A DNA stretch of 38,401 nucleotides from a virus (IMGVR_UViG_3300044259_000172); one strand, 5' to 3'. Shown: positions 20,762 to 36,065, numbered from the stretch's first letter. A program made the numbers and translations. Notes: generated by a model from the letters alone, not told the origin.

Positions 20762-20769
20762 GATAAATA
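20762..20769 (+). promoter_or_regulatory. Late promoter-like GATAAATA at the head of the + strand island
   Basis: One-base variant of TATAAATA, 23 nt before the first ATG; same octamer at 27854, 28536 and 17259 (minus). Confidence 0.55.
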
Positions 20770-20792: not shown

Positions 20793-21083
20793 ATGGCGAC
20801 ACCATCAGCTCATATAGCCCTAGGAACTGTTAAAGGCGGATTTCCTATTTTGGATACAAAATTCACTTCAATCGATTTAGTTCCAGGAGATGTTTATACC
20901 ATAACAAATTCTAATTTCAATTATATGGTAATGTCATCTCAAACAAATTTGTGGGTAGCGTTTACATTCGATGGCTCTACTCCTAATCCAGAAGTAAACC
21001 CAAGATTTTATATTACCGCTGATACTTTATGCCCATTTTTTGTATCTCAAGGAACAAAAATAGTTGTTGCTGAGGTAGTTTAA
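20793..21083 (+). CDS. Small beta-rich protein, paralog of 28564-28845; putative appendage adaptor
   Basis: SAHIALGTVKGGFPILDTKF...NY...WVAF...P.P...PR...PF.V..GTKI aligns end to end with the 93-aa ORF. Confidence 0.7.
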   Translation: MATPSAHIALGTVKGGFPILDTKFTSIDLVPGDVYTITNSNFNYMVMSSQTNLWVAFTFDGSTPNPEVNPRFYITADTLCPFFVSQGTKIVVAEVV

Positions 21084-21085
21084 AA

Positions 21086-21253
21086 TTGCCAAATTCTGAA
21101 AAAAAGGGTTCAGCCTTTACAATTTATAAATTTAAAAAATCACAAGAACTTCCTACTCTTCCAAGCGACGGAAGATATGTGGTTGATGATACTGTTGAAC
21201 CTATTCTTTTTGTAGTAAATGATGATGGTAAATTTGTAATAGATACGGAATAG
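21086..21253 (+). CDS. Small hypothetical protein (55 aa, TTG start), below the ORF-track cutoff
   Basis: Hand translation LPNSEKKGSAFTIYKFKKSQELPTLPSDGRYVVDDTVEPILFVVNDDGKFVIDTE; GAGG 10 nt upstream; fills the gap exactly. Confidence 0.45.
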   Translation: MPNSEKKGSAFTIYKFKKSQELPTLPSDGRYVVDDTVEPILFVVNDDGKFVIDTE

Positions 21254-21263
21254 GGAATAAAAT

Positions 21264-24008
21264 ATGGCCATAGAAACAGTAAATTCATTAGTTCAATTAG
21301 TTACGGACTTAAATAAACAAACTATTCCTTTAAAAGCTGGAATTAATGCAAATTTAAAACCTAATTTGCAATCTTTAGGAACAGTAGGAGGGGATGTAAA
21401 TCAAATCCCAATCTTTACAGCACCTGGAGTATTTTCTACTATTGATAAAAATAATCTAATTCAAGGTCTTAATTATGATAGTTATGTTCCTACTATTTCT
21501 GATAGGTCTGCTTATGATAATGAAGCAAAAGATTATAAAGTTTTAGTTGGAGATAATGGGTCTGGTAGAGCTGTTCTCTTTATTAAAAAATCGAATTTGA
21601 GTGCTGATTGGTCAAGCGCAATTTTTATAACAGGAGACAGAGGGCTTAGAGGGTTTCAAGGAGATAAAGGAGACAAAGGTGATCCAGGAGTAGGAACTCA
21701 AGGACCAAAGGGTGATACTGGTCCAGCTGGAGCTGATGGCGCAACTATTAATGTTGTCGCAGGAACTACTACGACAACTTCTCCAGGAACCAATGCTCAA
21801 GTTACTTCAACTTTAGTTTCTCCTACTCAATTAAGATTAGATTTTCAAATACCAAGAGGACAAGATGGTTCGGGAACTGGGAATGTAGTAGGTCCATCTA
21901 CAGGGACATATACTGGGCAATTTGCGATATTTTCTGATTCAACCGGAAAAAGAATTGAAGGCCTTTCAAATATTTCAGCTGATATTGTAACATTTAGCGT
22001 TGCAGGAATTGATGTTCCTACAACTGCAGATGATGTGCAAAGTGTTATCGAATATTTAGTTTCAAGAAGACCTCCTTCTTCTCAAGTTCCTTTTAGTAAT
22101 ACAACCTCATCTCTTCCAAATAATCCATCAAATGTCCAGGCTGCTATCGATTCATTGGCAGGAAGAACTATTTATGGATCTGGAATTGTATTCAATAATA
22201 CAACCTCATCTCTTCCAAATAATCCATCAAATGTCCAGGCTGCTATCGATTCATTGGCTTCGAGACCAATAAATTCTAATCAAGTACTTTTTGATAATAC
22301 TGGAATTAATATTCCAGGAAGTCCTACAGAAACTCATGCTGCTATTTCTAATTTTTATTCAGACTATTTGGTTAAAAATAGTGAAAGATGGACAAAGACA
22401 GAGCTTCCAGCTCAAGCTTTAGGAAAGAGCATTTTAAATTCAAATGATCAAACTGCGATTAGAGGATTAATTTCTGCTAACAGATATTTGGATGATATTA
22501 CTCAATCTGAAGCGGAAGCTGGAACTTCTACAATTCAAAGAAATTGGTCATCTTTAAATGTAAGACAATCGATAAATTATCTTTTATCTAATGTATGGGG
22601 AACTCCTTCTCTTTATTGGACAAAAGCTGAACTTCCTGCCTCAACTATCGGTAAAAATCTTCTAAATGTAGTTGATCAAGCTACAGGAAGATCTTTATTG
22701 AATGCTCAAGTTCTTTTAGATGATGTAACTCAAGCAGAAGCTGTAGCTGGAACAAGCACAACTAATAAAAATTGGTCATCTCTAAGAGTTAGACAGGCTA
22801 TTAATGCAGTCACGAGTTTAATTCCTTCCGATGCTGCTAGTGTAACTTTTGATAATTCTATTGCTGGATATCCATCTGCTCCTACAAATGTTCAAAAAGC
22901 TCTTGAAGTTGTAAAATCCATCATTCCTACAACTGCGACAGGAATCAATTTTGATAATTCTGTAACAAATTTCCAGGATAATCCTGTTAATGTACAAAAA
23001 GCTATTGAATCTGCGACAAATCTGATAAATCTTCAGAGTGAAGCTACGGGGGTAGGATTTGATAATTCTACAATTCAGTTAACTGGAACTCCAGATACAG
23101 TTTATAAAGCTTTTGCATCAGTAAAATCGATGATTAATACTGTATCATCTTCTTCAAATATCTCTTTTTCTAACACTGCATCTTCGATCCCAGGATCTCC
23201 TTCAAATGTTCAATCTGCGATTGATAGTTTTCATACTGAATTTAATTCTGCCGTTGCCGCAAAATTAAATCTAACAGGTGGAACATTAACCGGGGATTTA
23301 AATATCCAAAAGAATACTCCTTCGTTATATTTAAATGAAACTGGGCTTAATGCTAAATGGAGAATTCAACATGGAGGTGGAGGAAATTTAAGATTTGACC
23401 AATTTGATTCGTCAAATAATCAAGTTACTCCTTTAACTATTAGCCCTACAGGAGAAATTACTTCTCCATTAATTGGGGCATTATCTACGGCTCTTGGATC
23501 AAAAGTAAATGATACTGGTGATACAATGACCGGAGATCTTGCGATTAATAAGAATTTTCCAGCAGTTTCCTTTCAATACCCAACATTTCCTACTTGGAAT
23601 ATTGGGCCTAGAGAAGACGGTAGATTTTATTATTATTTACCAAATACCTTAGTAGCTCCTTTAAGTTTTGGACAAGATGGATCTATCGCATCAAATCAAT
23701 TTGGTGATTTGTTAACAGCTTTAAATTCTAAGGTTAATGATACTGGTGATACAATGACCGGAGATTTAACAATCTCCAAAACTTATCCACAAATGAAATT
23801 GACTTATACCGGAGTGGCTTCATGGGGGATTTACACAAATATCGATGGAAAAATGTATCATCAATATACTCCTAGCGGAGGATCTCCTTCAAATCCTATA
23901 GTATTTGGATCTAATGGATCTATTTCAACTGCACAAATTGGAGATTTAAAGACAGCTTTGGACAATATAAATACAAATACTATAGTGATGGCAATAGCCT
24001 TAGGATAA
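21264..24008 (+). CDS. Tail fibre protein with collagen-like segment and several repeat families
   Basis: G-x-y run GDRGLRGFQGDKGDKGDPG..GPKGDTGPAG; about seven F(S/D)NT...P.NVQ.AI repeats; two DD(I/V)TQ.EA.AGTS repeats; KVNDTGDTMTGDL repeats; C-terminal IVMAIALG. Confidence 0.85.
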   Translation: MAIETVNSLVQLVTDLNKQTIPLKAGINANLKPNLQSLGTVGGDVNQIPIFTAPGVFSTIDKNNLIQGLNYDSYVPTISDRSAYDNEAKDYKVLVGDNGSGRAVLFIKKSNLSADWSSAIFITGDRGLRGFQGDKGDKGDPGVGTQGPKGDTGPAGADGATINVVAGTTTTTSPGTNAQVTSTLVSPTQLRLDFQIPRGQDGSGTGNVVGPSTGTYTGQFAIFSDSTGKRIEGLSNISADIVTFSVAGIDVPTTADDVQSVIEYLVSRRPPSSQVPFSNTTSSLPNNPSNVQAAIDSLAGRTIYGSGIVFNNTTSSLPNNPSNVQAAIDSLASRPINSNQVLFDNTGINIPGSPTETHAAISNFYSDYLVKNSERWTKTELPAQALGKSILNSNDQTAIRGLISANRYLDDITQSEAEAGTSTIQRNWSSLNVRQSINYLLSNVWGTPSLYWTKAELPASTIGKNLLNVVDQATGRSLLNAQVLLDDVTQAEAVAGTSTTNKNWSSLRVRQAINAVTSLIPSDAASVTFDNSIAGYPSAPTNVQKALEVVKSIIPTTATGINFDNSVTNFQDNPVNVQKAIESATNLINLQSEATGVGFDNSTIQLTGTPDTVYKAFASVKSMINTVSSSSNISFSNTASSIPGSPSNVQSAIDSFHTEFNSAVAAKLNLTGGTLTGDLNIQKNTPSLYLNETGLNAKWRIQHGGGGNLRFDQFDSSNNQVTPLTISPTGEITSPLIGALSTALGSKVNDTGDTMTGDLAINKNFPAVSFQYPTFPTWNIGPREDGRFYYYLPNTLVAPLSFGQDGSIASNQFGDLLTALNSKVNDTGDTMTGDLTISKTYPQMKLTYTGVASWGIYTNIDGKMYHQYTPSGGSPSNPIVFGSNGSISTAQIGDLKTALDNINTNTIVMAIALG
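22097..22258 (+). repeat. 63-bp exact direct repeat within the tail fibre (22097-22159 and 22196-22258, period 99 nt)
   Basis: taatacaacctcatctcttccaaataatccatcaaatgtccaggctgctatcgattcattggc occurs twice. Confidence 0.9.
23508..23765 (+). repeat. 30-bp exact direct repeat (23508-23537 and 23736-23765) encoding NDTGDTMTGD
   Basis: aatgatactggtgatacaatgaccggagat occurs twice, 228 nt apart. Confidence 0.85.
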
Positions 24009-24012
24009 TAAA

Positions 24013-24351
24013 TTGACAACAAGTAATTTTTTACAAAAAACTAGTTTAGATATTGGAACTTCAGTTGTCTCCATTGGAGGTTATACAGTTCCAGCTTCAA
24101 CACAAACCATAGTTATTGGATTAACTGTCTCGAATAAAACTACTTCAACTATTCAGGTCTCCATTAGTTATTATAATGGAACTACTGATGCTTATGTAGT
24201 CAAGAATGCTTCGATTGTTCCGGGAGGATCTATCGTAGCGGCAGGGGGAAATCAAAAAATTGTGATGGCAGCAGGATCTAGTGTCAGAGTAATCTCATCT
24301 GCAGCAACATCAGCTGATGCTATAATGTCAATTCTTGAAATAGGACCATAA
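24013..24351 (+). CDS. Small tail-fibre-associated beta-sandwich protein (TTG start)
   Basis: IGTS...GGYTVPAST.TIVIGLTVSN...YVVKNA.IVPGGS.V...GNQKIV...S..S..SADAIMSILEI family that typically follows AIALG-ending fibres. Confidence 0.75.
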   Translation: MTTSNFLQKTSLDIGTSVVSIGGYTVPASTQTIVIGLTVSNKTTSTIQVSISYYNGTTDAYVVKNASIVPGGSIVAAGGNQKIVMAAGSSVRVISSAATSADAIMSILEIGP

Positions 24352-24354
24352 TAA

Positions 24355-25581
24355 ATGAGTTATATCGGAAATACTCCTACATTAACAACTAGAATAGATT
24401 ATATTTTTGTCTCATCTCAAGGACAATTGACATTTTCGGGAACAGATTCTAATAATCTGGTTCTCTCTTATAATCCTTCTAATGTTGATATATTTGCGAA
24501 TGGAGTGCTTTTACCAAGAAGTGATTTTGTGGCAAATGATTCAAGTTCGGTTATATTATCTTCAGCGAGAAATTCTGGAGACGTTATTACCGTTAGAGCT
24601 TACGGAATTCCAGATTCTATTAATGCTCTTTTACCAGGAAAAGTAGATGTTTCTTCTGCAGGGATCCTTTCCTCTTTTAGAAACAAAATAATGAACGGAA
24701 ATTTTGATCTTTGGCAAAGAGGAACTACCCAAACGACTTCTGGATATGGAGCAGCAGACAGATGGCTTTCAGGTAATTCCGGGTCAACTAAAACTACCTC
24801 ACTTCAGTCATTTACTCTAGGCCAAACTGATGTTCCTGGAAATCCAACTTATTTCTGTAGGACTGTAGTTTCATCTGTAGCAGGAACTGGTAATTTTGTT
24901 AATTTTTCTCAATCTGTAGAAGGAGTCCAAACTCTTTCTGGCAAAACTGCTACTTTAACTTTTTATGCTAAGGCTGACGCATCAAGACCTATGGGTGTTG
25001 AGTTTGCGCAAAATTTTGGATCATCAGGAAGTCCGTCATCACCTATATTAGGAATTGGTGCAACTAAAGTAAATCTAACAACTTCCTGGGCAAGATATGA
25101 TGTTGTAGTTTCTATTCCTTCAATTACAGGAAAAACCTTGGGAACTGATACTAATAATCTATTATTTATAGGGTTTTGGTTTGATGCAGGATCTTCTTAT
25201 AATTTAAGAAGTGCTTCCCTTGGTCAGCAATCTGGTACTTTTGATATTGCTAGAGTTTCTCTCGTTGAAGGAGATGCCAGATCAGATCTTAATCCATTTT
25301 CGGAAAGACATCCTCATCAAGAATTAGCTTTATGTGAAAGGTATTACCAAGTAATGCCTGGGACATATTATGCTTTTTCCGCAGGAGGAACTGCTACAGT
25401 TAGAAGATATCAAATAACATTTAGAAATCCTATGAGAGCTTCTCCTTCAGTTTCATGGAATTCGGGAGATACTTTTTATGTGGATGAAAAAAATAACAAA
25501 ATGATTAGATGGTATACGGACCCAGGATCAAATGCAGGTGAAAGAGCATTAGGAACTATTATTTGCGATGCAGAACTTTAA
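24355..25581 (+). CDS. Tail fibre / receptor-binding protein 1
   Basis: MSYIGNTP N-terminal anchor, VDIFANGVLL, FRNKIMNGNFDLWQRGT...ELALCERYY carbohydrate-binding-type domain, C-terminal DAEL. Confidence 0.85.
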   Translation: MSYIGNTPTLTTRIDYIFVSSQGQLTFSGTDSNNLVLSYNPSNVDIFANGVLLPRSDFVANDSSSVILSSARNSGDVITVRAYGIPDSINALLPGKVDVSSAGILSSFRNKIMNGNFDLWQRGTTQTTSGYGAADRWLSGNSGSTKTTSLQSFTLGQTDVPGNPTYFCRTVVSSVAGTGNFVNFSQSVEGVQTLSGKTATLTFYAKADASRPMGVEFAQNFGSSGSPSSPILGIGATKVNLTTSWARYDVVVSIPSITGKTLGTDTNNLLFIGFWFDAGSSYNLRSASLGQQSGTFDIARVSLVEGDARSDLNPFSERHPHQELALCERYYQVMPGTYYAFSAGGTATVRRYQITFRNPMRASPSVSWNSGDTFYVDEKNNKMIRWYTDPGSNAGERALGTIICDAEL

Positions 25582-25612
25582 GATATATAATGATATTAGA
25601 AAAGGAATATAA

Positions 25613-26104
25613 ATGGCAGTAGAATCAGCACACTATGATATGTTTGGAAATATAGTCGCAGTTATTGACGGGACGACTTATTCCATTCCAGATGAAATGG
25701 GAAATCGTTTCAGACAAATGGTAAAGGAATGGGAAGATTTAGGAAATACGATTGCACCTTATGTAGCTCCTCCTGCACCTATCGTCATTTATAAACCTAT
25801 AATTGAAGCTATTGCGGTATTTAATATTAATGGGGATGATATTGAAACTGTTGATCTATCAACAAAATTTTCTGGAGCAGCTAAAGTGGATGTAGGTAAA
25901 TATGTTCTAATGTTTTCTGAGCCAAGAGCTGATTCGAATTATATGCCTCTTGCATATTCTAATGATAATACCGATGCTAAATGTTCAATTAAATCTGATG
26001 AGATGTTTGATTCTTATTTCTTTGTAACTTGTGTCGATTCTCAAAATACTCCTATTGATATTACAAAATTATCAGTAGAAATTAAATCTCTTGTAGCAGC
26101 TTAA
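25613..26104 (+). CDS. Tail fibre assembly/chaperone-like protein 1
   Basis: IPDEMGNRFRQMVKEWEDLGNTIAPY motif shared with 26378-26875; C-terminus GKYVLMFSEPRADSNY resembles fibre-tip domains. Confidence 0.65.
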   Translation: MAVESAHYDMFGNIVAVIDGTTYSIPDEMGNRFRQMVKEWEDLGNTIAPYVAPPAPIVIYKPIIEAIAVFNINGDDIETVDLSTKFSGAAKVDVGKYVLMFSEPRADSNYMPLAYSNDNTDAKCSIKSDEMFDSYFFVTCVDSQNTPIDITKLSVEIKSLVAA

Positions 26105-26117
26105 AGGAAATTAAAAT

Positions 26118-26366
26118 ATGAAAATTGTATGTAATTCATTCAACAAAGTAACAGTATGGACGACATTTTCTGCTGATATTCCAGCCGCTGTAAAACAAAT
26201 TGTTGGAGTAGGAAATCCTTATTGGGCATGGGCATCCATTCCTGCGGGAAAAGTAATTGGGGCAGATTTTACAAATGCACCAATTTGCTCCTCAGATTTA
26301 ACTCAAATCGCTTCTGATATTGCTGCCATTACAGCTCTTCCAAATGATGTGTTAACTTATCAATAA
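26118..26366 (+). CDS. Hypothetical protein (82 aa)
   Basis: Good SD (AAAGGA); sits within the fibre cassette. Confidence 0.6.
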   Translation: MKIVCNSFNKVTVWTTFSADIPAAVKQIVGVGNPYWAWASIPAGKVIGADFTNAPICSSDLTQIASDIAAITALPNDVLTYQ

Positions 26367-26377
26367 GGAAAATAATA

Positions 26378-26875
26378 ATGGCTGTAGAAAGTGCTAAATT
26401 CGATCCTAAGGGGTCGATTATTGCCGTTATCGATGGAACGACATTCACAATTCCAGATGATTTTGGCAATAGACATAGGCATATGATTGAAGAATGGGTA
26501 AATGAGGGAAATACTATAGAAGAGTATGTTCCTCCTCCTGTTGATTTAAATGCATACGTCGCAAATCTTAGATATGAAAAGGAAATAGGCGGAACTGTTT
26601 GGAACACTTATCCAGTTCATACAGATAGAGAAAGTCAAAATAAAATTTCTGCGGAAGTTTTGGCTATTTCCTTAGGTTTAAGACAGGATGGAGATCCTTG
26701 GAAGTTTAAGGATGGTGAATTTAGGCCAATAACAAATGCTCAAATGACGGACATTGCTAATACGGTAAGATCTCATATTAGAAATGTTTTTGGAAAAGAA
26801 TCTTTAGTAATTGATAAAATTAATTCTAAAGAAATTACTACAACAGACCAGATTGATATCATATTTAATGAGTAA
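26378..26875 (+). CDS. Tail fibre assembly chaperone, DUF4376-like
   Basis: N-terminal IPDDFGNRH..MIEEW...GNTIEEY; C-terminal LRYEKEIGG...TDRESQ.KI...WK.KDG.F...T..QM..IA..V..HI...F.KE pattern. Confidence 0.75.
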   Translation: MAVESAKFDPKGSIIAVIDGTTFTIPDDFGNRHRHMIEEWVNEGNTIEEYVPPPVDLNAYVANLRYEKEIGGTVWNTYPVHTDRESQNKISAEVLAISLGLRQDGDPWKFKDGEFRPITNAQMTDIANTVRSHIRNVFGKESLVIDKINSKEITTTDQIDIIFNE

Positions 26876-27848
26876 TACATCAGATTTATCATTCTCGAAT
26901 ATATCTAAACAATCTGTTTCTTCAGGAGGAATTCTTTCTTCTTTTAGAAACAAAATCATAAATGGAAATTTTGATTTCTGGCAAAGAGGGACATCTCAAA
27001 CTTCAGCAGGTTATGGATCTGCGGATAGATGGTATTGTGATAATATCGGTTCTACTAAAACTACTTCTAGGCAAACATTCACTCTAGGTCAAACTGATGT
27101 TCCAGGAAATCCAACTTATTTTTGTAGGACTGTAGTTTCTTCTGTTGCAGGTGCTTCAAATTACGTAAATATCTTACAAAGAATAGAAGGAGTTCAAAAT
27201 CTTTCTGGTAAAACTGCTACTTTAACTTTTTATGCTAAGGCTGACTCAGCAAAGCCAATAGCAGTCTCATTAGTACAAAATTTTGGTACAACAGGAAGTC
27301 CATCATCTAGAGTTTTGGCGATAGGTTCAACTAAAGTAAATCTAACAACTTCCTGGGCAAGATATGATGTCGTAGTTTCTATTCCTTCAATTACAGGAAA
27401 AACCCTTGGAACTGACAATAATGATTTTCTAACTGTGGTATTTTGGTTTGATACTGGATCAAGCAATACAGAATCCGCTTCTCTTGGCCAGCAATCTGGT
27501 ACTTTTGATATTGCTAGAGTTTCTCTTGTTGAAGGAGATGCTAGATCAGATTCTGACCCATTTTCTCCTAGACATATTCAACAAGAATTGGCCTTATGTC
27601 AGAGATATTATTATAGTTCTTCTCTTGGGGTTGTTGCCTTTCCTGACTCTATTTCGGGTACACCTACTGATACGAGATCTAAATTTGCATATCTTTATTT
27701 TCCTGTTAGGATGAGAAGGGGTCCTTCAACATCTGGTACTGCAGGATTTTCACTTATAGGGGGAATAGATGGAATAATAGCTTCTATAGCAGCAGCTCAA
27801 AACGCAAGTTCAATTATTAGTACTTGGATAGCAGACGCCGAATTGTAA
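26868..27848 (+). CDS. Tail fibre / receptor-binding protein 2, lacking the N-terminal anchor
   Basis: ATG at 26868 (in frame with the track ORF from 26811, overlapping the upstream stop); FRNKIINGNFDFWQRGT...ELALCQRYY...DAEL; only about 20 aa before the shared domain. Confidence 0.8.
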   Translation: MSNTSDLSFSNISKQSVSSGGILSSFRNKIINGNFDFWQRGTSQTSAGYGSADRWYCDNIGSTKTTSRQTFTLGQTDVPGNPTYFCRTVVSSVAGASNYVNILQRIEGVQNLSGKTATLTFYAKADSAKPIAVSLVQNFGTTGSPSSRVLAIGSTKVNLTTSWARYDVVVSIPSITGKTLGTDNNDFLTVVFWFDTGSSNTESASLGQQSGTFDIARVSLVEGDARSDSDPFSPRHIQQELALCQRYYYSSSLGVVAFPDSISGTPTDTRSKFAYLYFPVRMRRGPSTSGTAGFSLIGGIDGIIASIAAAQNASSIISTWIADAEL

Positions 27849-27851
27849 TTA

Positions 27852-27890
27852 GTGATAAATAATCCTATATAATCTAAGGAGATTTATCAC
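27852..27890 (+). promoter_or_regulatory. RBS-sequestering hairpin with late promoter-like GATAAATA (27854-27861) in its 5' arm
   Basis: GTGATAAAT-AA-TCCT-[atataatcta]-AGGA-G-ATTTATCAC then C-ATG of the endolysin. Confidence 0.7.
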
Positions 27891-27891
27891 C

Positions 27892-28530
27892 ATGCATATT
27901 ATCGATGTCGTAAATAAATTTTGCCCAAATGCAAAACCTGCTTACATTCAGGCTTTTAAAGAAAATGATTCCAATTTTGTAAAATATGGAGTAAATTCAA
28001 CTAAAAGAGTTTCTCAATTTTTAGCCCAAACTATTCATGAAACTGGGCAATTTACTATTTTTGTTGAAAATGGAAATTATAATCCTGAAAGAATTCCTGA
28101 AGTTTGGCCTACAAGATTTAAAACAGTAGCTGCCGCATCTCCTTATGCTCATAATCCTCAAAAATTATTCAATAATGTTTATGCAAATAGAATGGGAAAT
28201 GGTCCAGAATCTTCAGGAGATGGATACAAATATCGCGGTAGAGGAACTTTACAGACTACAGGTAAAGAATCTTATGATGAATATGGGAAAGAGTTAGGAA
28301 TTGATCTTGTAACTAATCCTGATCTTTTACTTGATCCAAAATACATCCTTCTTCCGGCTCTTCTTGAATGGCATAATAAGGGATGTAATGAATTTGCAGA
28401 TAAAGGAGATATAAACTCTATTACATTAAAAATTAATGGAGGATATACAGGTCTTACTGAGAGAAAGCAATGGCTTTCAAAAATTCAGGCATTCATTGGT
28501 TCTTCCAATATAGAATTTGCTTCAGCTTAA
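27892..28530 (+). CDS. Endolysin, glycoside hydrolase family 19
   Basis: FLAQTIHETG, VENGNY, YANRMGNG, GDGYKYRGRG..QTTGKESY, ITLKINGGYTGL.ER. Confidence 0.92.
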   Translation: MHIIDVVNKFCPNAKPAYIQAFKENDSNFVKYGVNSTKRVSQFLAQTIHETGQFTIFVENGNYNPERIPEVWPTRFKTVAAASPYAHNPQKLFNNVYANRMGNGPESSGDGYKYRGRGTLQTTGKESYDEYGKELGIDLVTNPDLLLDPKYILLPALLEWHNKGCNEFADKGDINSITLKINGGYTGLTERKQWLSKIQAFIGSSNIEFASA

Positions 28531-28535
28531 ATAGT

Positions 28536-28543
28536 GATAAATA
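28536..28543 (+). promoter_or_regulatory. Late promoter-like GATAAATA heading the second cassette
   Basis: Intergenic, 20 nt before the ATG of the 93-aa paralog. Confidence 0.55.
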
Positions 28544-28563
28544 CTAGAAAAGGAAGATAAAGA

Positions 28564-28845
28564 ATGTCAGCACATTTAGTTTTTGGAAATGTCAAAGGAG
28601 GTCATCCTATTATTGACACAAATTTTGTATCAGCGGATATAGCTCATGGAACAATTTATACATCTCCAGATGTATCTCATAATTATCTTATTGTTCATAC
28701 TGATGAATTAGCTTGGGTAGCATTCAGCTCTGATTCAACTGTAGATCCAGATCCTTCTAAATCTCCTAGAATTTTAGTAGCAGCTCACTCGCCATTTCCA
28801 TTTTACATTAAGCCTGGTACTAAAATTAAAACGGCAGCAGCTTAA
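28564..28845 (+). CDS. Small beta-rich protein, paralog of 20793-21083; putative appendage adaptor
   Basis: SAHLVFGNVKGGHPIIDTNF...NYL...WVAF...PDP...PRI...PFYIKPGTKI. Confidence 0.7.
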   Translation: MSAHLVFGNVKGGHPIIDTNFVSADIAHGTIYTSPDVSHNYLIVHTDELAWVAFSSDSTVDPDPSKSPRILVAAHSPFPFYIKPGTKIKTAAA

Positions 28846-28857
28846 AGGAAATTTTTT

Positions 28858-29034
28858 ATGATTTCCTTATCAATGGGATTAGGATTTTCTTTGATAGGAT
28901 CAGTTTATTCTAATCAACAAGATACTACTAATATTCCTCCAAATGCCATGTTTAGGACAGTTGGAGGAATTGTATATTATGCGACAAGTAGCGTACAAAA
29001 TAATGCATATGCAGTTAGGAATTCATCTCAATGA
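28858..29034 (+). CDS. Small protein (58 aa) with N-terminal SLSMGLGFSLIG motif, below the ORF-track cutoff
   Basis: Hand translation MISLSMGLGFSLIGSVYSNQQDTTNIPPNAMFRTVGGIVYYATSSVQNNAYAVRNSSQ; AAAGGA SD; ATGA overlap with the next gene. Confidence 0.65.
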   Translation: MISLSMGLGFSLIGSVYSNQQDTTNIPPNAMFRTVGGIVYYATSSVQNNAYAVRNSSQ

Positions 29035-30722
29035 CAACTTTAACATTTGATTATGATTTAGATCAATTTTTTCAAAGGCTTCGAGGTTGGTGGTCTGCTC
29101 AATCTTTATCTGGTGCAGTCGATGGATCAGATGTCAATAGACTTCTAGATTTAACATCACACGGGCAGAGTATGGTTTCTGCATCAGCTTCTACGGCTCC
29201 TATTCTTAAATTAAATGGACTAAATGGGCATCCTACTCTTAATTTCGCAACAGGTAAAAGACTTGTAGCATCAACAATGGGTAATGGAGGAATTTTTCAA
29301 TCTGGAGCTATTTCACAGCCATTTACAATGATAGCAGTAGCAAAATCAAGAAGTGTAGATGCAGGAACAGCTAGAGTAATTTTATCATCAACCTCAGCAA
29401 GTCAATGTAGTTTACTTATCAATTCGACTGGATTACTCCAAATTGCTGCTGGAAGCAATGGAGCTCAAGGAGGACCTGTTATTGATGATGACACTTTCCA
29501 TATCGTAATTGGTTGTTTTGACACTGGATCAGCTGCTTTATTTGTTGATGGATATTGTGCAGGTGCTTCTTCAGGACAAACCCATGGAACAAATACTCTT
29601 GCTCAATTTACTATGGGATCAGTTGCTTCAGGAGCATCTTATTTTAATGGTGAAATCGCCGAAGTAATGCTTTTAGAAGGAAGACCTAAATTGCAAGAAA
29701 TTAAGATGATTAATGATTATCTTTCTTCTAAATGGGGATTAAATCTCGTAATCCCTTCTCAATCATCAGCAAATCCGATTACAGGAATTGATGCAAATTC
29801 GGTCACTTGTCGTACATGGTTACCTACCACAATAACTTCAACAACACCTGTATGTATAGTTTCTCACCAAGCAGGTGGAGATAGCAATATTACTTTATCT
29901 TATGGCATGTATCCATACATAAGAGAATTAGTAAATGCTGGTTTTTGTGTAATAGCCTCGGATAATGGAGGAGCAAATACTTGGGCTAATTCGGCTGCTC
30001 AAGCATCTCTTATGGCAGCTTATAATTTAGCATCATCGCAATTAACGGCATTAGGCGGTGGAGCAGGAAATGTCATGCTATTAGGATTTTCTATGGGCGG
30101 AGGAAATTCTATGATAGGAATAGCATTAGGAGGATTTCCTGCAGGTAAAATAAAAGCTTTAATGTCAGTAGATGGAGTTATGGATTTGTCTACTCTTTAT
30201 TCTCAATCTACATATACTTCAACAATTGAATCTGCTCATGGTATTACATCAGGAATTTTATCGGGGGCAACGATAGTAGGTGCAACATCTATTCCTACTA
30301 CAGCTTCATTTCCTACAATAGGAACAAAACTTATGGTAGGAAATGGAACTTCCAATGTAGAAATTGTCACAACGACAGGATCTTCAAATGGAACTTCCGT
30401 TCCATGTACAGCATTGACAAAACCACATGCATCTTCAGAGCAAGTTTCAGATTATCCTACAAAAACTTCAGGAAGAAGTGCAGTTACTCGTTCTCCAAAT
30501 GATTATACAGGTGTTAGATATTTTAGATTTTATGCTTCGTCTGGAGATACATCAGTTCCTAAAACTTCAAATGCTGATGCAATGTCGGCTCTTTTAGCCA
30601 CAGCATCATCTCCGCCTATAGAATATGCGGTTATAAGTCACCCAGGTGGGCATCTTCAAGGTGGGCATATGGCAAAAGATATGGTAGCATTTGCTTCTAG
30701 ATCTGGTTTAATTACAGTATAA
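29031..30722 (+). CDS. Putative tailspike: LamG/ConA-like domain plus alpha/beta-hydrolase (esterase)
   Basis: GWWSA...G..V..LLDL...FNGEIAEV...INDYLSSKWG LamG-type domain; LLGFSMGG nucleophile elbow (Ser354), GDTSV (Asp506), HPGGH (His537/His541). Confidence 0.75.
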   Translation: MTTLTFDYDLDQFFQRLRGWWSAQSLSGAVDGSDVNRLLDLTSHGQSMVSASASTAPILKLNGLNGHPTLNFATGKRLVASTMGNGGIFQSGAISQPFTMIAVAKSRSVDAGTARVILSSTSASQCSLLINSTGLLQIAAGSNGAQGGPVIDDDTFHIVIGCFDTGSAALFVDGYCAGASSGQTHGTNTLAQFTMGSVASGASYFNGEIAEVMLLEGRPKLQEIKMINDYLSSKWGLNLVIPSQSSANPITGIDANSVTCRTWLPTTITSTTPVCIVSHQAGGDSNITLSYGMYPYIRELVNAGFCVIASDNGGANTWANSAAQASLMAAYNLASSQLTALGGGAGNVMLLGFSMGGGNSMIGIALGGFPAGKIKALMSVDGVMDLSTLYSQSTYTSTIESAHGITSGILSGATIVGATSIPTTASFPTIGTKLMVGNGTSNVEIVTTTGSSNGTSVPCTALTKPHASSEQVSDYPTKTSGRSAVTRSPNDYTGVRYFRFYASSGDTSVPKTSNADAMSALLATASSPPIEYAVISHPGGHLQGGHMAKDMVAFASRSGLITV

Positions 30723-30732
30723 AGGAAAAAAA

Positions 30733-32847
30733 GTGGCTTCATTATCATTAGGTGTAGGATTTTCAATGGTAGGTCTATCTACTAAATTAGTAGATCTTGT
30801 AATTTATCCTATATCAATTTCAGGAACCCTTGAAAATGCGATAGTAGGAAATTATTTTTCATTTTTTCCAATGGTTTCAGGAGGATCTGGAACAAAAACT
30901 TTCTCTTTATCTGGAACTCTTCCTTCAGGATTAACATTTAATACTTCAAATGGATCTATTTCAGGAATTCCTACAGGATCTGGAATTTTCTCTAATATAT
31001 CAATTGCAGTATCAGATCCAACAGGTTCTGCTACACTTTCAAATATTTCATTGACTATAAAAGAAACATCTTCTATATCTTTAATTGCTACTTCTTATGA
31101 TATTCCAGTTTCTGTAAAATCTTCAACTTCTATAAGTCTTTCTCTTTCTGGAAATACTGCGACAGAAGGATCAACTGTAACGTTTATTGCTACAGTTTCA
31201 GGAGCAAATATCCCTACTGGAACGGTAACTTTTTATGATATGGGATTACCTCTTTCTACCGTTAGTTTGAATAATGGAGTAGGAACATTTAATACATCTT
31301 CTTTACCTTCAAGAGATCATATCATTTCTGTAGCATATAACGGAGATGACAATAATAAAACATCATTTTCTTCTCAATTAAAATTAACTATTGATGCAGT
31401 TATTAATCCTCCTGTAAATACTTCTGTTCCAGTTGTATCTGGAAGCACAGTATCAGGTTCAGTTTTAACCTCAACTACTGGATCTTGGACAGGAACTTCC
31501 TTAACATATTCATATCAATGGATCTGGGCTGATACTTCAACTCCTATTTCTGGAGCAACATCATCTACTTATACTCTAGTAGATTCTGATGGTGGGCATC
31601 AAATTTCATGTATAGTTACCGCATCAAATTCTGCTGCTACCGTAAGTTCTACTTCGTCTCCAACTTCTACTATTACTATTCCGATAAGATACCCAGTTAA
31701 TACGGTAGCTCCAACTATTTCAGGAACTCCTTCAACTGGGTCTACTCTTACTGCATCAACAGGAACTTGGTCAGGAAATTCTATTGTCTATACTTATCAA
31801 TGGATCTGGGCTGATACTTCAACTCCTATTTCTGGAGCAACATCATCTACTTATGTTCCAGTTTCTGGAGATGTTGGACATACTATAAATGTTCAAGTTA
31901 CTGCAACAAATTCTTATGGAACAGGAACTGCTTCTGCTACTCCTACTTCAGCTATTACTGCTCCTATATTATATCCAGTTAATACAGCAGTACCAACTAT
32001 TTCTGGGACTGTTTCTGTAGGATCTACTTTAACAACTACAAATGGAACTTGGGATGGAAGCGGAATAACTTATACCTACCAATGGTATTGGGCTGATACT
32101 TCTACTCCTATTTCTGGAGCAACGTCATCTACTTATATCATTGCATCAACAGATGCTACACATACTATCAGTTCTCACGTAACTGCTACGAATACCTATG
32201 GAAATTCTACAGCAAATTCAGCTGCAACAACAGTAGTAGTTTCTACTTCTGGTGTTACATTCTTTAGTGATACATTTACCGCAGCTGATGGAACACAATT
32301 AATTGCAGGATCTTATGTAGCTGATACAGGTCAGGCATATGAAACTCAAACTGGGGTAACTGTTGACGTTCTTGCTAAGATTTATAATGGAGAAGTGTAT
32401 AACCCTGCCGCTTCATCTTGGACGAATACTCCAAGAGCTAAAACAACACAAACCGCGTCTAATTATTATGTAGAAGGTGTTCTTGATTGTATTTCAGTTC
32501 TATCTGGAGAAACTGTAGGTATTACAGGTAGAGCTTCTGCTACCGAACAATCTTTATATTTTGCTAGATATTCAAGAGTTGTAAATGGGTGGCAATTATA
32601 TAAAACTGTGACAGGAACATCTACTCTTCTAGGATCATATTCTGATACCTTTACATCAGGACAAAGAACTCTTCGTTTAGAAATGAATGGTACCTCATTA
32701 AAAGTTTATGTGGATGGAACTCTCAGAATTTCTGCGACAGATTCATCGATCGCAGGACCAGGATCTCCAGGAATGAGAATTGGAGGATCTACTCAATCTC
32801 CTACCACCGGTACTCACATTACATCACTTAAAGCAGTCACATTGTAA
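30733..32847 (+). CDS. Multi-Ig-domain virion protein with C-terminal ConA-like domain
   Basis: GTG start; He_PIG-like SGTLPSGLTFNTSNGSISGIPT; Big_3-like VTFIATVSG..PTGTVTFYD...YNGD; three PVNT..P.(I/V)SG...TYQW.WADTSTPISGATSSTY repeats; KVYVDG C-terminal beta-sandwich. Confidence 0.8.
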   Translation: MASLSLGVGFSMVGLSTKLVDLVIYPISISGTLENAIVGNYFSFFPMVSGGSGTKTFSLSGTLPSGLTFNTSNGSISGIPTGSGIFSNISIAVSDPTGSATLSNISLTIKETSSISLIATSYDIPVSVKSSTSISLSLSGNTATEGSTVTFIATVSGANIPTGTVTFYDMGLPLSTVSLNNGVGTFNTSSLPSRDHIISVAYNGDDNNKTSFSSQLKLTIDAVINPPVNTSVPVVSGSTVSGSVLTSTTGSWTGTSLTYSYQWIWADTSTPISGATSSTYTLVDSDGGHQISCIVTASNSAATVSSTSSPTSTITIPIRYPVNTVAPTISGTPSTGSTLTASTGTWSGNSIVYTYQWIWADTSTPISGATSSTYVPVSGDVGHTINVQVTATNSYGTGTASATPTSAITAPILYPVNTAVPTISGTVSVGSTLTTTNGTWDGSGITYTYQWYWADTSTPISGATSSTYIIASTDATHTISSHVTATNTYGNSTANSAATTVVVSTSGVTFFSDTFTAADGTQLIAGSYVADTGQAYETQTGVTVDVLAKIYNGEVYNPAASSWTNTPRAKTTQTASNYYVEGVLDCISVLSGETVGITGRASATEQSLYFARYSRVVNGWQLYKTVTGTSTLLGSYSDTFTSGQRTLRLEMNGTSLKVYVDGTLRISATDSSIAGPGSPGMRIGGSTQSPTTGTHITSLKAVTL
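31513..32136 (+). repeat. 60-bp direct repeat core in three tandem Ig domains (31513-31572 and 31795-31854 exact; approx. 32077-32136 with a few mismatches)
   Basis: tatcaatggatctgggctgatacttcaactcctatttctggagcaacatcatctacttat at 282-nt spacing. Confidence 0.88.
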
Positions 32848-32856
32848 GGAAATAAA

Positions 32857-35694
32857 ATGACACTATCAAATATTATTAACAATGGAACAGTATCCTTAAC
32901 TGCTAATGTAAATTCAACAACCCCACTAACAGGAACAGTTGAATTTTATGATGGATCTACTAAAATAGGACAAACTCCTATTTCATCAAATATGAATATT
33001 TCATCTGTTATTTCATCAATTGGAAATCACCAATTGCAGGCAAAATATTTGGGAGATGCGACACATTTAAGTTCAGATTCTTCTCAATTAAATGTGAATG
33101 TTTCTGAATCAAATCTTCCAGATTTTACATATGATTCTGATACAATTTTATGGATTAATACAGTTAATGCTAAATTAACGACGGCATCCTTGACTCTTTT
33201 GACTAAAAGAGAAAAATATCATTATGATAGAATGATTAAAAGAATGAAATTTGATGAGACATGGTCTTATCAATTATCTCTTCAATTAAGAGCTGCCCCT
33301 TCTCAAGGAAATTCATCAAGACAAAAGATTATTAGTTCTGTTGATATTAGAAATCCTTCTATTAATTCAACTGAAATAGGAACTATAAATGAAACTCCAG
33401 ATACTGGATCTATTTCAGGAAATACTTCATCTTATATTAATACGGGATTTGATTCAAGTCTTTTGAATCAAGATGATAATTTCATCATGATGATGACAAA
33501 TAAATTGGAAACTGAAACTTATTCAGGAACGGCCCTAGATTTATGCGGTGTTATTTCTGGAGGAATTGGATTGACTATCAATCCTTATGTTTCAGGAACT
33601 GGTGGAATAAGTATAAGAAATAACAATGCATCCTTGACACCAGGGTCTGCATCAAGTGTTTCTAATGGTTCTGGGTTCGTAGTTATTAATAGAGATTCTT
33701 CCACTTCCGTAACATGCTATAGAAATGGCAAAAAACATCTCAATTTAAATCTTTCATCAGCAGGAAAAGTTTCAGGGAACATATTTCTAGGTGCAGTTAA
33801 TAATGGAGGAACTCCTACAACTGCTTCTACTGGGTTTAGATATTCTGCTTTTGGGGCAGGACGTTCAATGCCAGCAAATTTACAGAAGAAATATTATGCA
33901 TCAGTTAGAACTTTGGTTGATGCCATTCAATGGGGGCTTGTAGATTTCAATGAACCTGGAACGAATCCTACTAATGTTGTAGCAGATGCAGTTGTTTATG
34001 GTCTCACTTCTAATGGGATTGCTGCAGCTTATGAATTAAAACGTCAAGGTAAAAATGTAATTTTAGTAGGAGGTTGGAGAGATTTTCCAGGAAACCTAGG
34101 AGGAATGATGGCAGGAGGATTAGGGTTCTCTGACTTTGATAATCCTTCAGGTATCGCAGGACTTTCCAAATTAATTCTTGCTCTCATCAGATCTAAACAG
34201 AACATTAATACTGACTATTTTAATTGTAGATTTGCTAATTATACATTCAAACAACTACTGGATCCAAATAAACCATGTGGGCTTGATATTCCAGTCTATC
34301 TTTCGGAAGGAATTGAATCAACTACGAATGATGGTGGAACAGTTACCACATCCATTAAGACAGTTGATGGAAGAAGATTTTATGCAAAATATTTTATAGA
34401 CTCTTCATATGAAAGCGATTTAATAGCTCTTTCAAATATTTCTTATAAAGTAGGAAGAGAAGCTTCTTCTACCGGAGAAGAAATAATGAATGGATGGAGA
34501 GGAACTTCTACATCCTTTAATGAAGGTTCTCACCAGTTTAATGTTAATGGAACTTTGGTAAATGTAGATCCATATAAAACAATAGGAGATTCAACTTCTG
34601 GATTAATTTATGGGGTAAGACCTTGGCCTACAGGTAGAACTACAGGACAAGGAGATGTTGCAATTTATAAAAATAGATTAGTAACAAGTTCATCATTAAC
34701 TACTCCTGTGACTCAATCATTTAATTTTAGATTAATGATGGCCACCTCTGCGGTTTTTGTTTCAGATGAAACTTGGGCTTCTACCCCTCCTCCAAATTAT
34801 CAATCTTCCGAATTTGAATCTCTCTATAGATTTTGCGAGGCTGCAACCGCTGCAAGCTTATCTTATGGATATGTTGGAACTATTTTAAAAGCAGACTCTG
34901 TAGGAACAGGAGCTCTGGATATCAATTCTCAAGGAGGATTGTCAACAGATTTTTGGTTTGGAGCTTGGGATTATGTAGAAGCTTCTTATGCTGCAAGAGA
35001 GATAATCTGGAATGAAACCAAACAAAGAACTTATAGATTATTTTATGCTCATAGAAATGAACCTAGAATTCCATCAGCTTTGAGAACATCAGCAAACACA
35101 TTTAGTTTTCATAATGAAAATTTTGTAGATGTTTATAAAAATGATGATATTCATATGTCAACTCAATTGTATATCAGAGAAGCAAGAAGAATAATTGGAG
35201 ATCTTATCATTGATGCAAATGATATGGTTAAAACCGATGGAACTACTCCTAAAAGCATAAAAACTATTGGATTGGCTTCATATGCAGAAGACTCGCACCA
35301 TACTGGTCAATATGTTCATCCTACAATTTCAAAAATTTGGAATGAAGGAGGCTTTCTAAGATTTGGACCAGGAGGCGCTGACCAATTAACTCCAATTCCT
35401 TATGAAGCAATTTGTCCTAAAAGAACAGAATCTACGAATGTATTTTCTATTTTTGGATGTTCAGCGACACATGCAGCCTTTGGTTCTATAAGAATGGAAT
35501 TTACTGCTTGTATGTTAGGTCAAGCTGCTGGGATGGCAATAGCCATAGCCTTGGAATCGGGAAATATTGCTATCCAGGATGTTCTTTATAATACAAATTC
35601 TAATGATAATTTAAATCTTAGATCTAGATTATTAGCATCTGCAACAAATACTGCCTATGGAGAAACAACTCCTATTCTTCCAATGGTTAATTAA
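32857..35694 (+). CDS. Ig-like + LamG-like + FAD-dependent oxidoreductase (PF12831-type) fusion; putative virion appendage enzyme
   Basis: N-terminal Big_3-like TGTVEFYDG...YLGD; from about aa 375 AVVYGLTSNGIAAAYELKRQGKNVILV, LGGMMAGGLG.SD, AKYFIDSSYESDL, Y.VGRE, QSFNFRL, YIREARRIIG, IGLASY..DSH, IPYEAICPK, SATHAAFGSIRME...MLGQAAG. Confidence 0.8.
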   Translation: MTLSNIINNGTVSLTANVNSTTPLTGTVEFYDGSTKIGQTPISSNMNISSVISSIGNHQLQAKYLGDATHLSSDSSQLNVNVSESNLPDFTYDSDTILWINTVNAKLTTASLTLLTKREKYHYDRMIKRMKFDETWSYQLSLQLRAAPSQGNSSRQKIISSVDIRNPSINSTEIGTINETPDTGSISGNTSSYINTGFDSSLLNQDDNFIMMMTNKLETETYSGTALDLCGVISGGIGLTINPYVSGTGGISIRNNNASLTPGSASSVSNGSGFVVINRDSSTSVTCYRNGKKHLNLNLSSAGKVSGNIFLGAVNNGGTPTTASTGFRYSAFGAGRSMPANLQKKYYASVRTLVDAIQWGLVDFNEPGTNPTNVVADAVVYGLTSNGIAAAYELKRQGKNVILVGGWRDFPGNLGGMMAGGLGFSDFDNPSGIAGLSKLILALIRSKQNINTDYFNCRFANYTFKQLLDPNKPCGLDIPVYLSEGIESTTNDGGTVTTSIKTVDGRRFYAKYFIDSSYESDLIALSNISYKVGREASSTGEEIMNGWRGTSTSFNEGSHQFNVNGTLVNVDPYKTIGDSTSGLIYGVRPWPTGRTTGQGDVAIYKNRLVTSSSLTTPVTQSFNFRLMMATSAVFVSDETWASTPPPNYQSSEFESLYRFCEAATAASLSYGYVGTILKADSVGTGALDINSQGGLSTDFWFGAWDYVEASYAAREIIWNETKQRTYRLFYAHRNEPRIPSALRTSANTFSFHNENFVDVYKNDDIHMSTQLYIREARRIIGDLIIDANDMVKTDGTTPKSIKTIGLASYAEDSHHTGQYVHPTISKIWNEGGFLRFGPGGADQLTPIPYEAICPKRTESTNVFSIFGCSATHAAFGSIRMEFTACMLGQAAGMAIAIALESGNIAIQDVLYNTNSNDNLNLRSRLLASATNTAYGETTPILPMVN

Positions 35695-35708
35695 AATATT
35701 TGATGGGA

Positions 35709-36065
35709 TCAAAGATCAATCCCATCAACTTCTTTAGCAGAAGAATCCCATTGCTTCCGAACCTTTTCGATAATACCAGGATAACGATATTCAAATTCCT
35801 GGTACAATCCTTTTCGAACTTCTTTAGCAATTTTAATATCATCAGCCCAAATCATAAAAGTTTTAATTTGGGAATTATAACCAATTTTATACTGAGTGAC
35901 AGGATCAATATCTACGATCCATTTACGATCACCCGAAGAATCGATAAAAGTGTAATAATTGAAATAATGAAGAATATCTTCGAGATCCTTTTCAATAGTC
36001 TTTACAAAATCTTCAATCTTGATCGGAAGATGACGAAGCCCTGAAATTTTCACATTCTTGATCAT
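35709..36065 (-). CDS. Hypothetical protein (118 aa)
   Basis: ORF track; GGAG SD; coupled to the upstream small ORF by an ATGA overlap. Confidence 0.6.
   Translation of the reverse strand: MIKNVKISGLRHLPIKIEDFVKTIEKDLEDILHYFNYYTFIDSSGDRKWIVDIDPVTQYKIGYNSQIKTFMIWADDIKIAKEVRKGLYQEFEYRYPGIIEKVRKQWDSSAKEVDGIDL

Follow-up and report, generated by a model that had tools for sequence, protein, structure and literature searches.

Within a 38,401-nt stretch of a viral genome (IMGVR_UViG_3300044259_000172; hereafter the window), a compact cassette of five genes, P0001 to P0005, occupies positions 28,536 to 35,694. The presence in this cassette of a glycan-directed esterase (P0003) and of a second enzyme, of the PF12831 family (P0005), is well supported. 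As judged from sequence comparison, the cassette is a mosaic of one small lineage-specific protein and two gene pairs that recur separately in unrelated prophages of Rhizobiaceae. Tentatively, and with the balance close to even, we read it as a late accessory unit made from two portable gene pairs set behind P0001, the glycan-acting products of which would be tethered individually to the phage particle. Its features are listed here, with coordinates counted from the first nucleotide of the window and protein lengths in amino acids (aa).

28537-28544, plus strand: T4-type late-promoter-like motif GATAAATA, 20 nt 5' of the first ATG
28564-28845, plus strand: P0001, 93 aa, small beta-rich protein with no assigned function (phrog_24131, E 4.8e-11)
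28858-29034, plus strand: P0002, 58 aa, with an N-terminal alternating Gly/Ser-hydrophobic tag; its stop codon overlaps the P0003 start (ATGA)
29031-30722, plus strand: P0003, 563 aa, LamG/ConA-like domain (aa 17-216) plus alpha/beta-hydrolase carboxylesterase (aa 249-557), assigned from Pfam and an AlphaFold2 (AF2) model
30733-32847, plus strand: P0004, 704 aa, GTG start; tag at aa 1-20, He_PIG and Big_3_5 immunoglobulin (Ig) domains, C-terminal ConA-like domain
32857-35694, plus strand: P0005, 945 aa; Big_3_5 domain (aa 8-82), LPxFxY-helix and ConA-like module (85-357), PF12831 domain (377-910)
35700-35728, no strand assigned: palindromic hairpin with a 13-bp stem, 3' of the last stop codon and between convergent genes

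The five plus-strand open reading frames (ORFs) fill 28564-35694, separated in order by gaps of 12, -4 (the ATGA overlap), 10 and 9 nt, and a purine-rich ribosome-binding site lies ahead of every one of them. A scan of the plus strand from 20.7 to 35.7 kb found four ATAAATA sites (20763, 23967, 27855 and 28537), all four less than 50 nt upstream of plus-strand gene starts and none inside the five-gene unit; those at 20763 and 23967 are related motifs, and the extended motif TAGTGATAAATA is also found ahead of the endolysin gene, at 27855. The hairpin at 35700-35728 is likely to be the end of the transcription unit. Given the tight gaps, the lone 5' motif and the terminal hairpin, it is therefore reasonable to read the five genes as a single late transcription unit, and a first-pass annotation of the window that described a compact, late-promoter-headed unit of five genes was right in this respect. 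The same annotation had placed a ConA/LamG-type domain in each of the three large proteins and Ig domains in two of them. Both assignments hold: P0003, P0004 and P0005 all have the jelly-roll fold (P0004 from an Atlas model only), and the Ig domains are in P0004 and P0005.

The first gene pair joins the small P0002 to P0003. In the AF2 model of P0003 (predicted local distance difference test score, pLDDT, 87.2), a ConA-like fold at aa 12-229 (Z score 20.8 to AbnA domain 4) precedes an alpha/beta-hydrolase fold at aa 248-563, which matches PET46 (Z 21.9) and LC-Est1C (Z 21.2) and, next, feruloyl, carbohydrate and acetyl esterases (Z 19.4-21.9 over 183-268 residues). Pfam identifies Laminin_G_3 (PF13385; E 3.9e-11) in P0003; residues 240-563 searched alone gave no Pfam match at E <= 10, and two short relatives of the protein match PF12697. 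When PDB sequences were searched with a P0003 profile, the matches to the alpha/beta fold were all esterases or hydrolases (best E 0.0017), and the one non-hydrolase match was laminin, on the LamG part. The Ser-Asp-His hydrolase proposed by the first-pass annotation is thereby confirmed in its fold and its active site: S354 (in a G352-x-S354-x-G356 elbow), D506 and H541 are invariant across 17 homologues, and fold, GxSxG motif and triad follow the canonical order of alpha/beta-hydrolase serine esterases. The most conserved stretch of the family is a beta-rich insert between strands 6 and 7 (aa ~404-475), which may be a substrate-binding lid. This insert is near-identical in Rhizobium-type and Arthrobacter-type homologues. 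Among PHROGs, P0003 matches phrog_10356, which is labelled 'virion structural protein'.

A LamG-hydrolase 78-83% identical to P0003 is encoded in L010, a contig of siphovirus type that was binned as Rhizobium sp., where genes for lysozyme and spanin-like proteins immediately precede it, and the pair of P0002-like ORF and LamG-hydrolase is also present in a different large phage contig (L009). The P0002-like ORF lies directly 5' of the hydrolase gene in both contigs (9852-10001 in L010, where it is missing from the gene calls, and 9834-10001 in L009), and in both it ends on the hydrolase start codon. P0002 has been kept at the protein level despite a GC content of 52-55% in L010 and L009 versus 33% here. 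Because a homologous ORF overlaps the hydrolase start in both contigs, we take P0002 to be a real, conserved and translationally coupled partner of P0003. Prediction of a complex between P0003 and P0002 gave a score of 0.08 against a mark of 0.32.

P0005 matches the PF12831 family (FAD_oxidored) over residues 377-910, with 169.7 bits against a cut-off of 27 (E 1.7e-49). Its AF2 model (pLDDT 89.6) contains a ConA-like domain at aa 128-357 (Z 15.8) and a flavoprotein FAD-binding subdomain that aligns with urocanate reductase over 219 of ~580 residues (Z 15.8) and further matches Thi4, MnmG, fumarate reductases and ketosteroid dehydrogenases; no solved chain among the matches listed covers the other ~350 residues of the domain. 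In a Foldseek search with the full model, the ConA-like domain dominates and the flavoprotein matches are weak. A phmmer search of PDB sequences with P0005 returned nothing at E <= 1, residues 85-365 alone gave no Pfam match at E <= 10, and residues 85-355 match a Pan3 tailspike chain (Z 14.9, 216 residues). All 41 aligned relatives of P0005 match PF12831, and in P0005 and nearly all of these relatives the dinucleotide motif is YG(L/G)TxxG, with Thr for the second Gly of GxGxxG; a downstream GG...GxLGxxD motif is conserved as well. The FAD oxidoreductase of the first-pass annotation stands as a PF12831 domain with a flavoprotein fold. Its nucleotide-binding motif is GxTxxG and not the canonical one, and the word 'flavoenzyme' is for P0005 a statement about family and fold in which FAD binding is predicted only. 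P0005 and its cellular relatives have 26 invariant residues in common, seven of them Arg, and phage and cellular domains superpose over the whole 370-945 region (TM score 0.81-0.84). The conserved site and the modelled flavoprotein fold argue for catalysis by P0005; 'oxidative attack' on a glycan is only a possibility.

The relatives of P0005, 764 of which were found in a word-seeded sensitive search, indicate where such an enzyme might act. Long relatives (~780-1040 aa, LamG-like plus PF12831) come from phages and prophages, namely 34 IMG/VR loci (mostly of 48-67% GC), three cultured Rhizobium phages and A. vitis prophages, and in phages PF12831 is always fused to a ConA-like domain. Upstream neighbours at 20 viral loci are chiefly endolysins, spanins, tail fibres or spikes. 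Short relatives (~520-690 aa) are cellular, from Bacteroidota, Verrucomicrobiota and others, and almost all of them start with a Sec or lipoprotein signal peptide (a Tat motif is present in only 2 of ~90). Some short forms are fused to Golvesin_C, a GDSL esterase or a dockerin, the last on one distant cellular relative only, and other cellular loci hold sulfatases with glycoside hydrolases (GHs) of families GH31 or GH2. The secreted proteins of Bacteroidota, Verrucomicrobiota and Planctomycetota share with P0005 the GxTxxG motif, the invariant residues and a partnership with esterases, but they differ in length (~550 aa), in their signal peptides, in often carrying Golvesin_C and in having no LamG or Ig domain. 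In phages too, esterases recur beside P0005- or P0004-type modules (GDSL in phiM12 gp203 and in locus L004, SASA in L009). Because the cellular relatives are secreted, and because their genes belong to loci with SusC/SusD, sulfatases or GHs and are next to esterase genes or fused with them, the cassette products are likely to act on host surface glycans.

One cellular locus, on a Sphingobacterium sp. chromosome (L048, 2375-11644), encodes an extracytoplasmic function (ECF) sigma factor, a FecR anti-sigma factor, SusC, SusD, a GDSL esterase (227 aa) and a PF12831 protein (547 aa). In the stretch shown, gene calling gave this minimal polysaccharide-utilisation locus (PUL) no classical glycoside hydrolase or lyase, and the locus is well suited as a cellular model in which to look for the substrate. 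More distant PF12831 relatives, at 23-27% identity, are also present in two IMG/VR contigs labelled as giant-virus metagenome-assembled genomes (L036 and L037), the second with two tandem copies. A literature search on PF12831/FAD_oxidored or rhizobiophage FAD oxidoreductases found nothing relevant. The name 'putative xanthan lyase', given automatically to cellular relatives, has no visible basis, since the characterised xanthan lyases belong to polysaccharide lyase family PL8 (PMC5673643); 'FAD-dependent oxidoreductases' are mentioned in actinobacterial xanthan loci as uncharacterised proteins.

P0004, which opens the second pair, contains a 282-bp tandem repeat (nt 31502-32137) encoding ~2.3-3 Ig-type units of 94 aa. 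Its C-terminal 210 aa (aa 495-704; nt 32215-32844) fall on ConA-like (DUF1080-type) Atlas clusters, with TM scores of 0.71-0.81 by query and of 0.74-0.78 to clusters named for DUF1080/3keto-disac_hyd and GH16. This resemblance is at the level of the fold only: the isolated C-terminus has no Pfam match at E <= 10, and the PF06439 hidden Markov model (HMM) found nothing across the whole phage genome. The domain has 2348 relatives, and among those scanned a GDSL esterase domain is present in 32 of 86 and a PF06439 match in 5 of 86. Proteins with DUF1080 include a 3-keto-glycoside hydrolase, a promiscuous endo-glucanase and CBM66-like binders (PMC9007349, PMC10881899, PMC5673643). For the C-terminal domain of P0004, the role of a lectin-type module would fit the distribution better than a catalytic one. 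The catalytic ExDxxE motif of GH16-type enzymes was not present on inspection of this C-terminus. The idea that P0004, as a DUF1080-like protein, and P0005 form a two-step '3-keto-glycoside' pair that oxidises and then eliminates was set aside, because the P0004-type domain occurs mostly on GDSL or SASA esterases, is absent beside most P0005 relatives and fails the PF06439 HMM. One such SASA-type esterase, of 775 aa and ending in a P0004-type ConA-like domain, is encoded at 12748-15075 of L009, a 105-kb phage contig, ~1 kb 3' of the LamG-hydrolase and 5' of the terminase, portal and capsid genes.

P0004 and P0005 lie in one reading frame, parted by a single TAA and 9 nt with a ribosome-binding site (32845-32859), and the homologous pair of an A. 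vitis prophage (L002, 9986-10003) is likewise in frame, with one TAA and 12 nt. This arrangement probably reflects re-initiation, with read-through to a fusion protein being possible.

The second pair, like the first, is found elsewhere on its own. In a myovirus-type A. vitis prophage, the lysis genes are followed by a gene for a 432-aa Ig protein, the C-terminal domain of which is 47% identical to that of P0004, and then by one for a 950-aa protein with a PF12831 domain 66% identical to that of P0005. No P0001 homologue was found in the L010, L009 or A. vitis prophage contexts. Homologues of P0001 occur only in phages of the Sinorhizobium phiM12 group and in RHph_I1_18, no further relatives were found by word search or by a pattern scan of IMG/VR, and Pfam gave no match at E <= 10. 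Its structural neighbours in the Atlas are viral clusters without names, ~100 aa long (TM 0.78-0.82), and a paralogue at 20793-21083 (41% identity) heads the tail-fibre operon; on its phylogenetic spread, we regard P0001 as a lineage-specific small protein. The GC content at third codon positions (GC3) of the cassette genes from 29031 to 35694 is 0.12-0.17, versus 0.50-0.66 in relatives from L002, L004, L009 and L010 at 66-81% aa identity. Because GC3 has shifted yet aa identity remains at this level, the cassette genes appear to be long resident in an AT-rich genome and under purifying selection. Synonymous sites are fully adapted to the AT-rich phage, and the proteins are conserved.

A further thread runs between the pairs at the protein N-termini. 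P0002 and P0004 open with the same alternating Gly/Ser-hydrophobic peptide, 10-20 aa long, which is on no other ORF of the 154-kb genome; it is thus carried by two of the five cassette products, P0003 and P0005 being without it. At least 14 of 47 long P0005 relatives open with the same kind of peptide, followed by a Gly-rich linker and then LPxFxY, the conserved LPxFxY-helix segment being the start of the LamG module in the long relatives. P0005 and its A. vitis homologue have an Ig domain in the place of the tag, which sits on the upstream Ig protein; other long relatives have different short N-termini ahead of the same linker. The tag itself has no match in Pfam (E <= 10) or PHROGs, and the PHROGs matches to the N-termini of tagged relatives (phrog_26223 and phrog_18498) cover only the region where LamG starts. 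A docking element might be expected to have just this form, a short peptide that varies between lineages and sits on a flexible linker, and the alternating peptide on P0002, P0004 and no fewer than 14 relatives may serve as a portable plug-in tag for tethering such enzymes to very different virions. A signal peptide or a SAR domain was considered and set aside as unlikely, the tag being too short and having no charged n-region.

The substrate, the order of action, the tethering and the flavin chemistry are what we infer in the following scheme. We propose that horizontal transfer would have placed two gene pairs behind P0001, one consisting of P0002 and the LamG-targeted serine carboxylesterase P0003, and the other of the tagged, Ig-rich, ConA-ended P0004 and the Ig-LamG-PF12831 enzyme P0005. 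The products would work extracellularly, their target being an acylated, acidic polysaccharide of the host surface (exopolysaccharide (EPS), capsule or lipopolysaccharide), from which the P0003 esterase would strip acyl groups first; the PF12831 domain of P0005, putatively the phage version of a secreted PUL family habitually found next to esterases, would next alter or cut the glycan thus uncovered. Through their ConA-like and Ig domains the enzymes would stay on the polymer, and each protein would be tethered to the particle on its own by a short N-terminal peptide and flexible linker, a tether carried by P0004 itself and possibly supplied to P0003 by P0002. Hints of tethering are the tag and linker on long P0005 relatives, the P0001 paralogue at the head of the fibre operon, the match of P0005 to the Pan3 tailspike chain, and the endolysins, spanins, fibres and spikes that prevail among upstream neighbours in 20 viral loci. 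Candidate chemistries for the PF12831 domain would be flavin-assisted oxidation or elimination, or that of a cofactor-free lyase, with acidic acylated EPS as the target. A more speculative suggestion, which we rate as rather unlikely, is that this PF12831 subfamily forms a so far undescribed class of polysaccharide-active enzymes with a flavoprotein fold, and that the N-terminal peptide is a portable virion tag. The former is prompted by the GxTxxG motif, by the number of invariant Arg, His and Tyr residues, by the secretion, and by the pairing with esterases in PULs and phages.

Several observations weigh against this scheme. Pfam and PHROGs detected no known particle-anchor domain in the cassette proteins, the models of P0003 and P0005 are compact and globular and lack the trimeric beta-helix typical of spikes, and proteomic or structural evidence of virion membership was not found; where relatives are called 'tail fiber' or 'virion structural protein', similarity is the basis of the name. 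The gene for the P0005 relative lies between terminase and portal in RHph_N3_19 and among head genes in RHph_Y55, a variable position that looks like the behaviour of mobile cargo and not of a fixed structural part. P0005 does not have the canonical GxGxxG motif, and this alteration, together with the Sec export of the cellular relatives, leaves the use of flavin uncertain; Sec export is unusual for non-covalent flavoproteins. The literature yields no characterised reaction for the PF12831 subfamily of P0005, and the host and its polysaccharide are deduced solely from where homologues come from. Some of these points would favour soluble late proteins that are freed at cell burst and are not parts of the virion, where they would de-acylate or degrade EPS or biofilm matrix, or destroy receptors on debris, and so aid the spread of progeny. 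The globular models, the lack of a recognisable anchor domain and the differing gene positions agree with such release, as does the location of the modules right after endolysin or spanin genes here, in phiM12, in L010 and in the A. vitis prophage; indeed, in viral contigs no upstream neighbours are commoner than endolysins and spanins. Nonetheless, we consider release at lysis the less likely account, since the conserved N-terminal peptide and Gly linker have no obvious use in a free cytoplasmic enzyme, and the Ig domains and the paralogue of P0001 in the fibre operon point to particle surfaces. Adjacency to lysis genes may be incidental, because many prophages have their lysis cassette at the end of the tail operon. 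We lean, then, towards individual tethering over release.

Two other accounts seem improbable to us. The first-pass annotation had joined all five products in a single virion-borne multi-enzyme assembly resembling a cellulosome, in which P0001 would be the adaptor and the tag the docking element. The single promoter, the tight packing and the tag common to P0002 and P0004 are consistent with one appendage, as is the place of P0001-like genes ahead of those for large LamG proteins, seen in two cassettes of this phage and also in phiM12. However, the comparisons above do not bear out a single five-part appendage: the two gene pairs are found apart in other phages, in contexts where P0001 has no relatives, and P0003 and P0005 are themselves untagged. 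The cellulosome comparison fares no better, extending only to the idea of several glycan enzymes with a common docking element. Whereas a cellulosome has cohesin and dockerin, Pfam found neither dockerin (PF00404) nor cohesin in the five cassette proteins, and the cassette has its short tag on two products and no scaffold identified. It is similarly improbable that P0005 does not act on the host surface at all, being instead, for example, an intracellular redox enzyme or a dead binding module, with its clustering with esterases incidental. In favour of this account, the family is named for oxidoreductases and has their fold, its dinucleotide motif is a degenerate one, and the gene shifts between phage modules like a moron (a mobile accessory gene). 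Set against this are the constant fusion of PF12831 to a ConA-like domain in phages, the secretion of cellular relatives from glycan loci with esterases, and the 26 invariant residues, including the Thr of the altered motif, which argue for a working site.

The cassette has partial parallels in known systems. Enzymatic tailspikes and side fibres, among them depolymerases and deacetylating esterase spikes, are late-expressed and modular, with lectin-like and Ig domains and enzymes that act on the host surface glycan. The cassette is likewise late and modular with lectin-like and Ig domains, as known here from sequence and models, but it has no trimeric beta-helix and no recognised particle-binding domain, and its enzymes have alpha/beta-hydrolase and flavoprotein folds. 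The closest arrangement is the cassette of phiM12, also a T4-superfamily rhizobiophage, which has the same grammar (endolysin - GIY-YIG - SmphiM12_400 - SmphiM12_398): a chitinase-type endolysin, followed by a homologue of P0001 (32% identity) and by a large protein in which a partial GDSL esterase is joined by an Ig repeat 44% identical to that of P0004 and by a P0005-type LamG module. It differs in having a single large protein with a GDSL esterase, and no PF12831 domain, alpha/beta-hydrolase or small tagged ORF. The LamG-like plus PF12831 architecture of P0005 is also that of proteins named 'FAD dependent oxidoreductase domain-containing' in the Rhizobium phages RHph_N3_19, RHph_Y55 and RHph_I72 (30-36% identity) and in A. 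vitis prophages (52-66% identity). These relatives differ in gene position (at terminase-portal, in the head module or after the lysis cassette), and most of them start with a short peptide tag and not with an Ig domain. There is a rhizobiophage precedent for a virion-associated enzyme of this general kind, the ExsH-like EPS glycanase of phiM12 and phiM9 (PMC4621102).

The window corresponds to bases 72153-110553 of a 154,347-bp record of an uncultured virus that has direct terminal repeats and a GC content of 31.6% over its whole length. The phage belongs to the T4 superfamily. On the minus strand of the window are genes for neck, baseplate and hub proteins of T4 type, for a giant protein resembling VrlC and for an RNA ligase of the gp63 type. 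Even with its best-matching cultured relatives, those of the ~150-kb Agrobacterium/Rhizobium phages OLIVR5/6, IG49, LG08 and IC12, the baseplate wedge protein shares only ~30% identity. From these relatives and from the origins of the cassette homologues, we infer that the host is probably in the Rhizobiaceae, Rhizobium or Agrobacterium. A blastn search of the cassette against 50,697 phage records gave no match. Upstream of the cassette, a plus-strand block from 20.8 kb holds two further features.

20793-27848, plus strand: tail-fibre operon, headed by the P0001 paralogue (context)
27892-28530, plus strand: endolysin gene (phrog_181, E 4.7e-65), with its own GATAAATA, directly 5' of the cassette

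The start of the tail-fibre operon (20793-21253) resembles that of the cassette, with a GATAAATA motif followed by the P0001 paralogue, of 96 aa, after which come an unannotated 55-aa ORF (TTG start, no tag) and a gene for a 914-aa collagen-like fibre. The stretch 24355-27848 includes a pair of paralogous fibre-tip genes (phrog_4492), and ahead of each of them lies a gene for a ~164-aa tail-fibre-assembly-like paralogue (25613-26104 and 26378-26875).

To our knowledge, nearly every phage enzyme that breaches the sugar coat of bacteria is either a beta-helix hydrolase or lyase or an SGNH esterase. If our reading of the cassette is true, the flavoprotein-fold domain would be a new catalytic class among them. 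Conservation of the PF12831 domain extends from the PULs of glycan-degrading bacteria in soil and water to numerous phages and prophages of Rhizobiaceae, and the cassette would provide a first functional handle on this large secreted subfamily. Because symbiosis and the formation of biofilms depend on rhizobial EPS, enzymes able to de-acylate or cut this polymer would be of practical use, and they may influence the host range of phages in agricultural soils.

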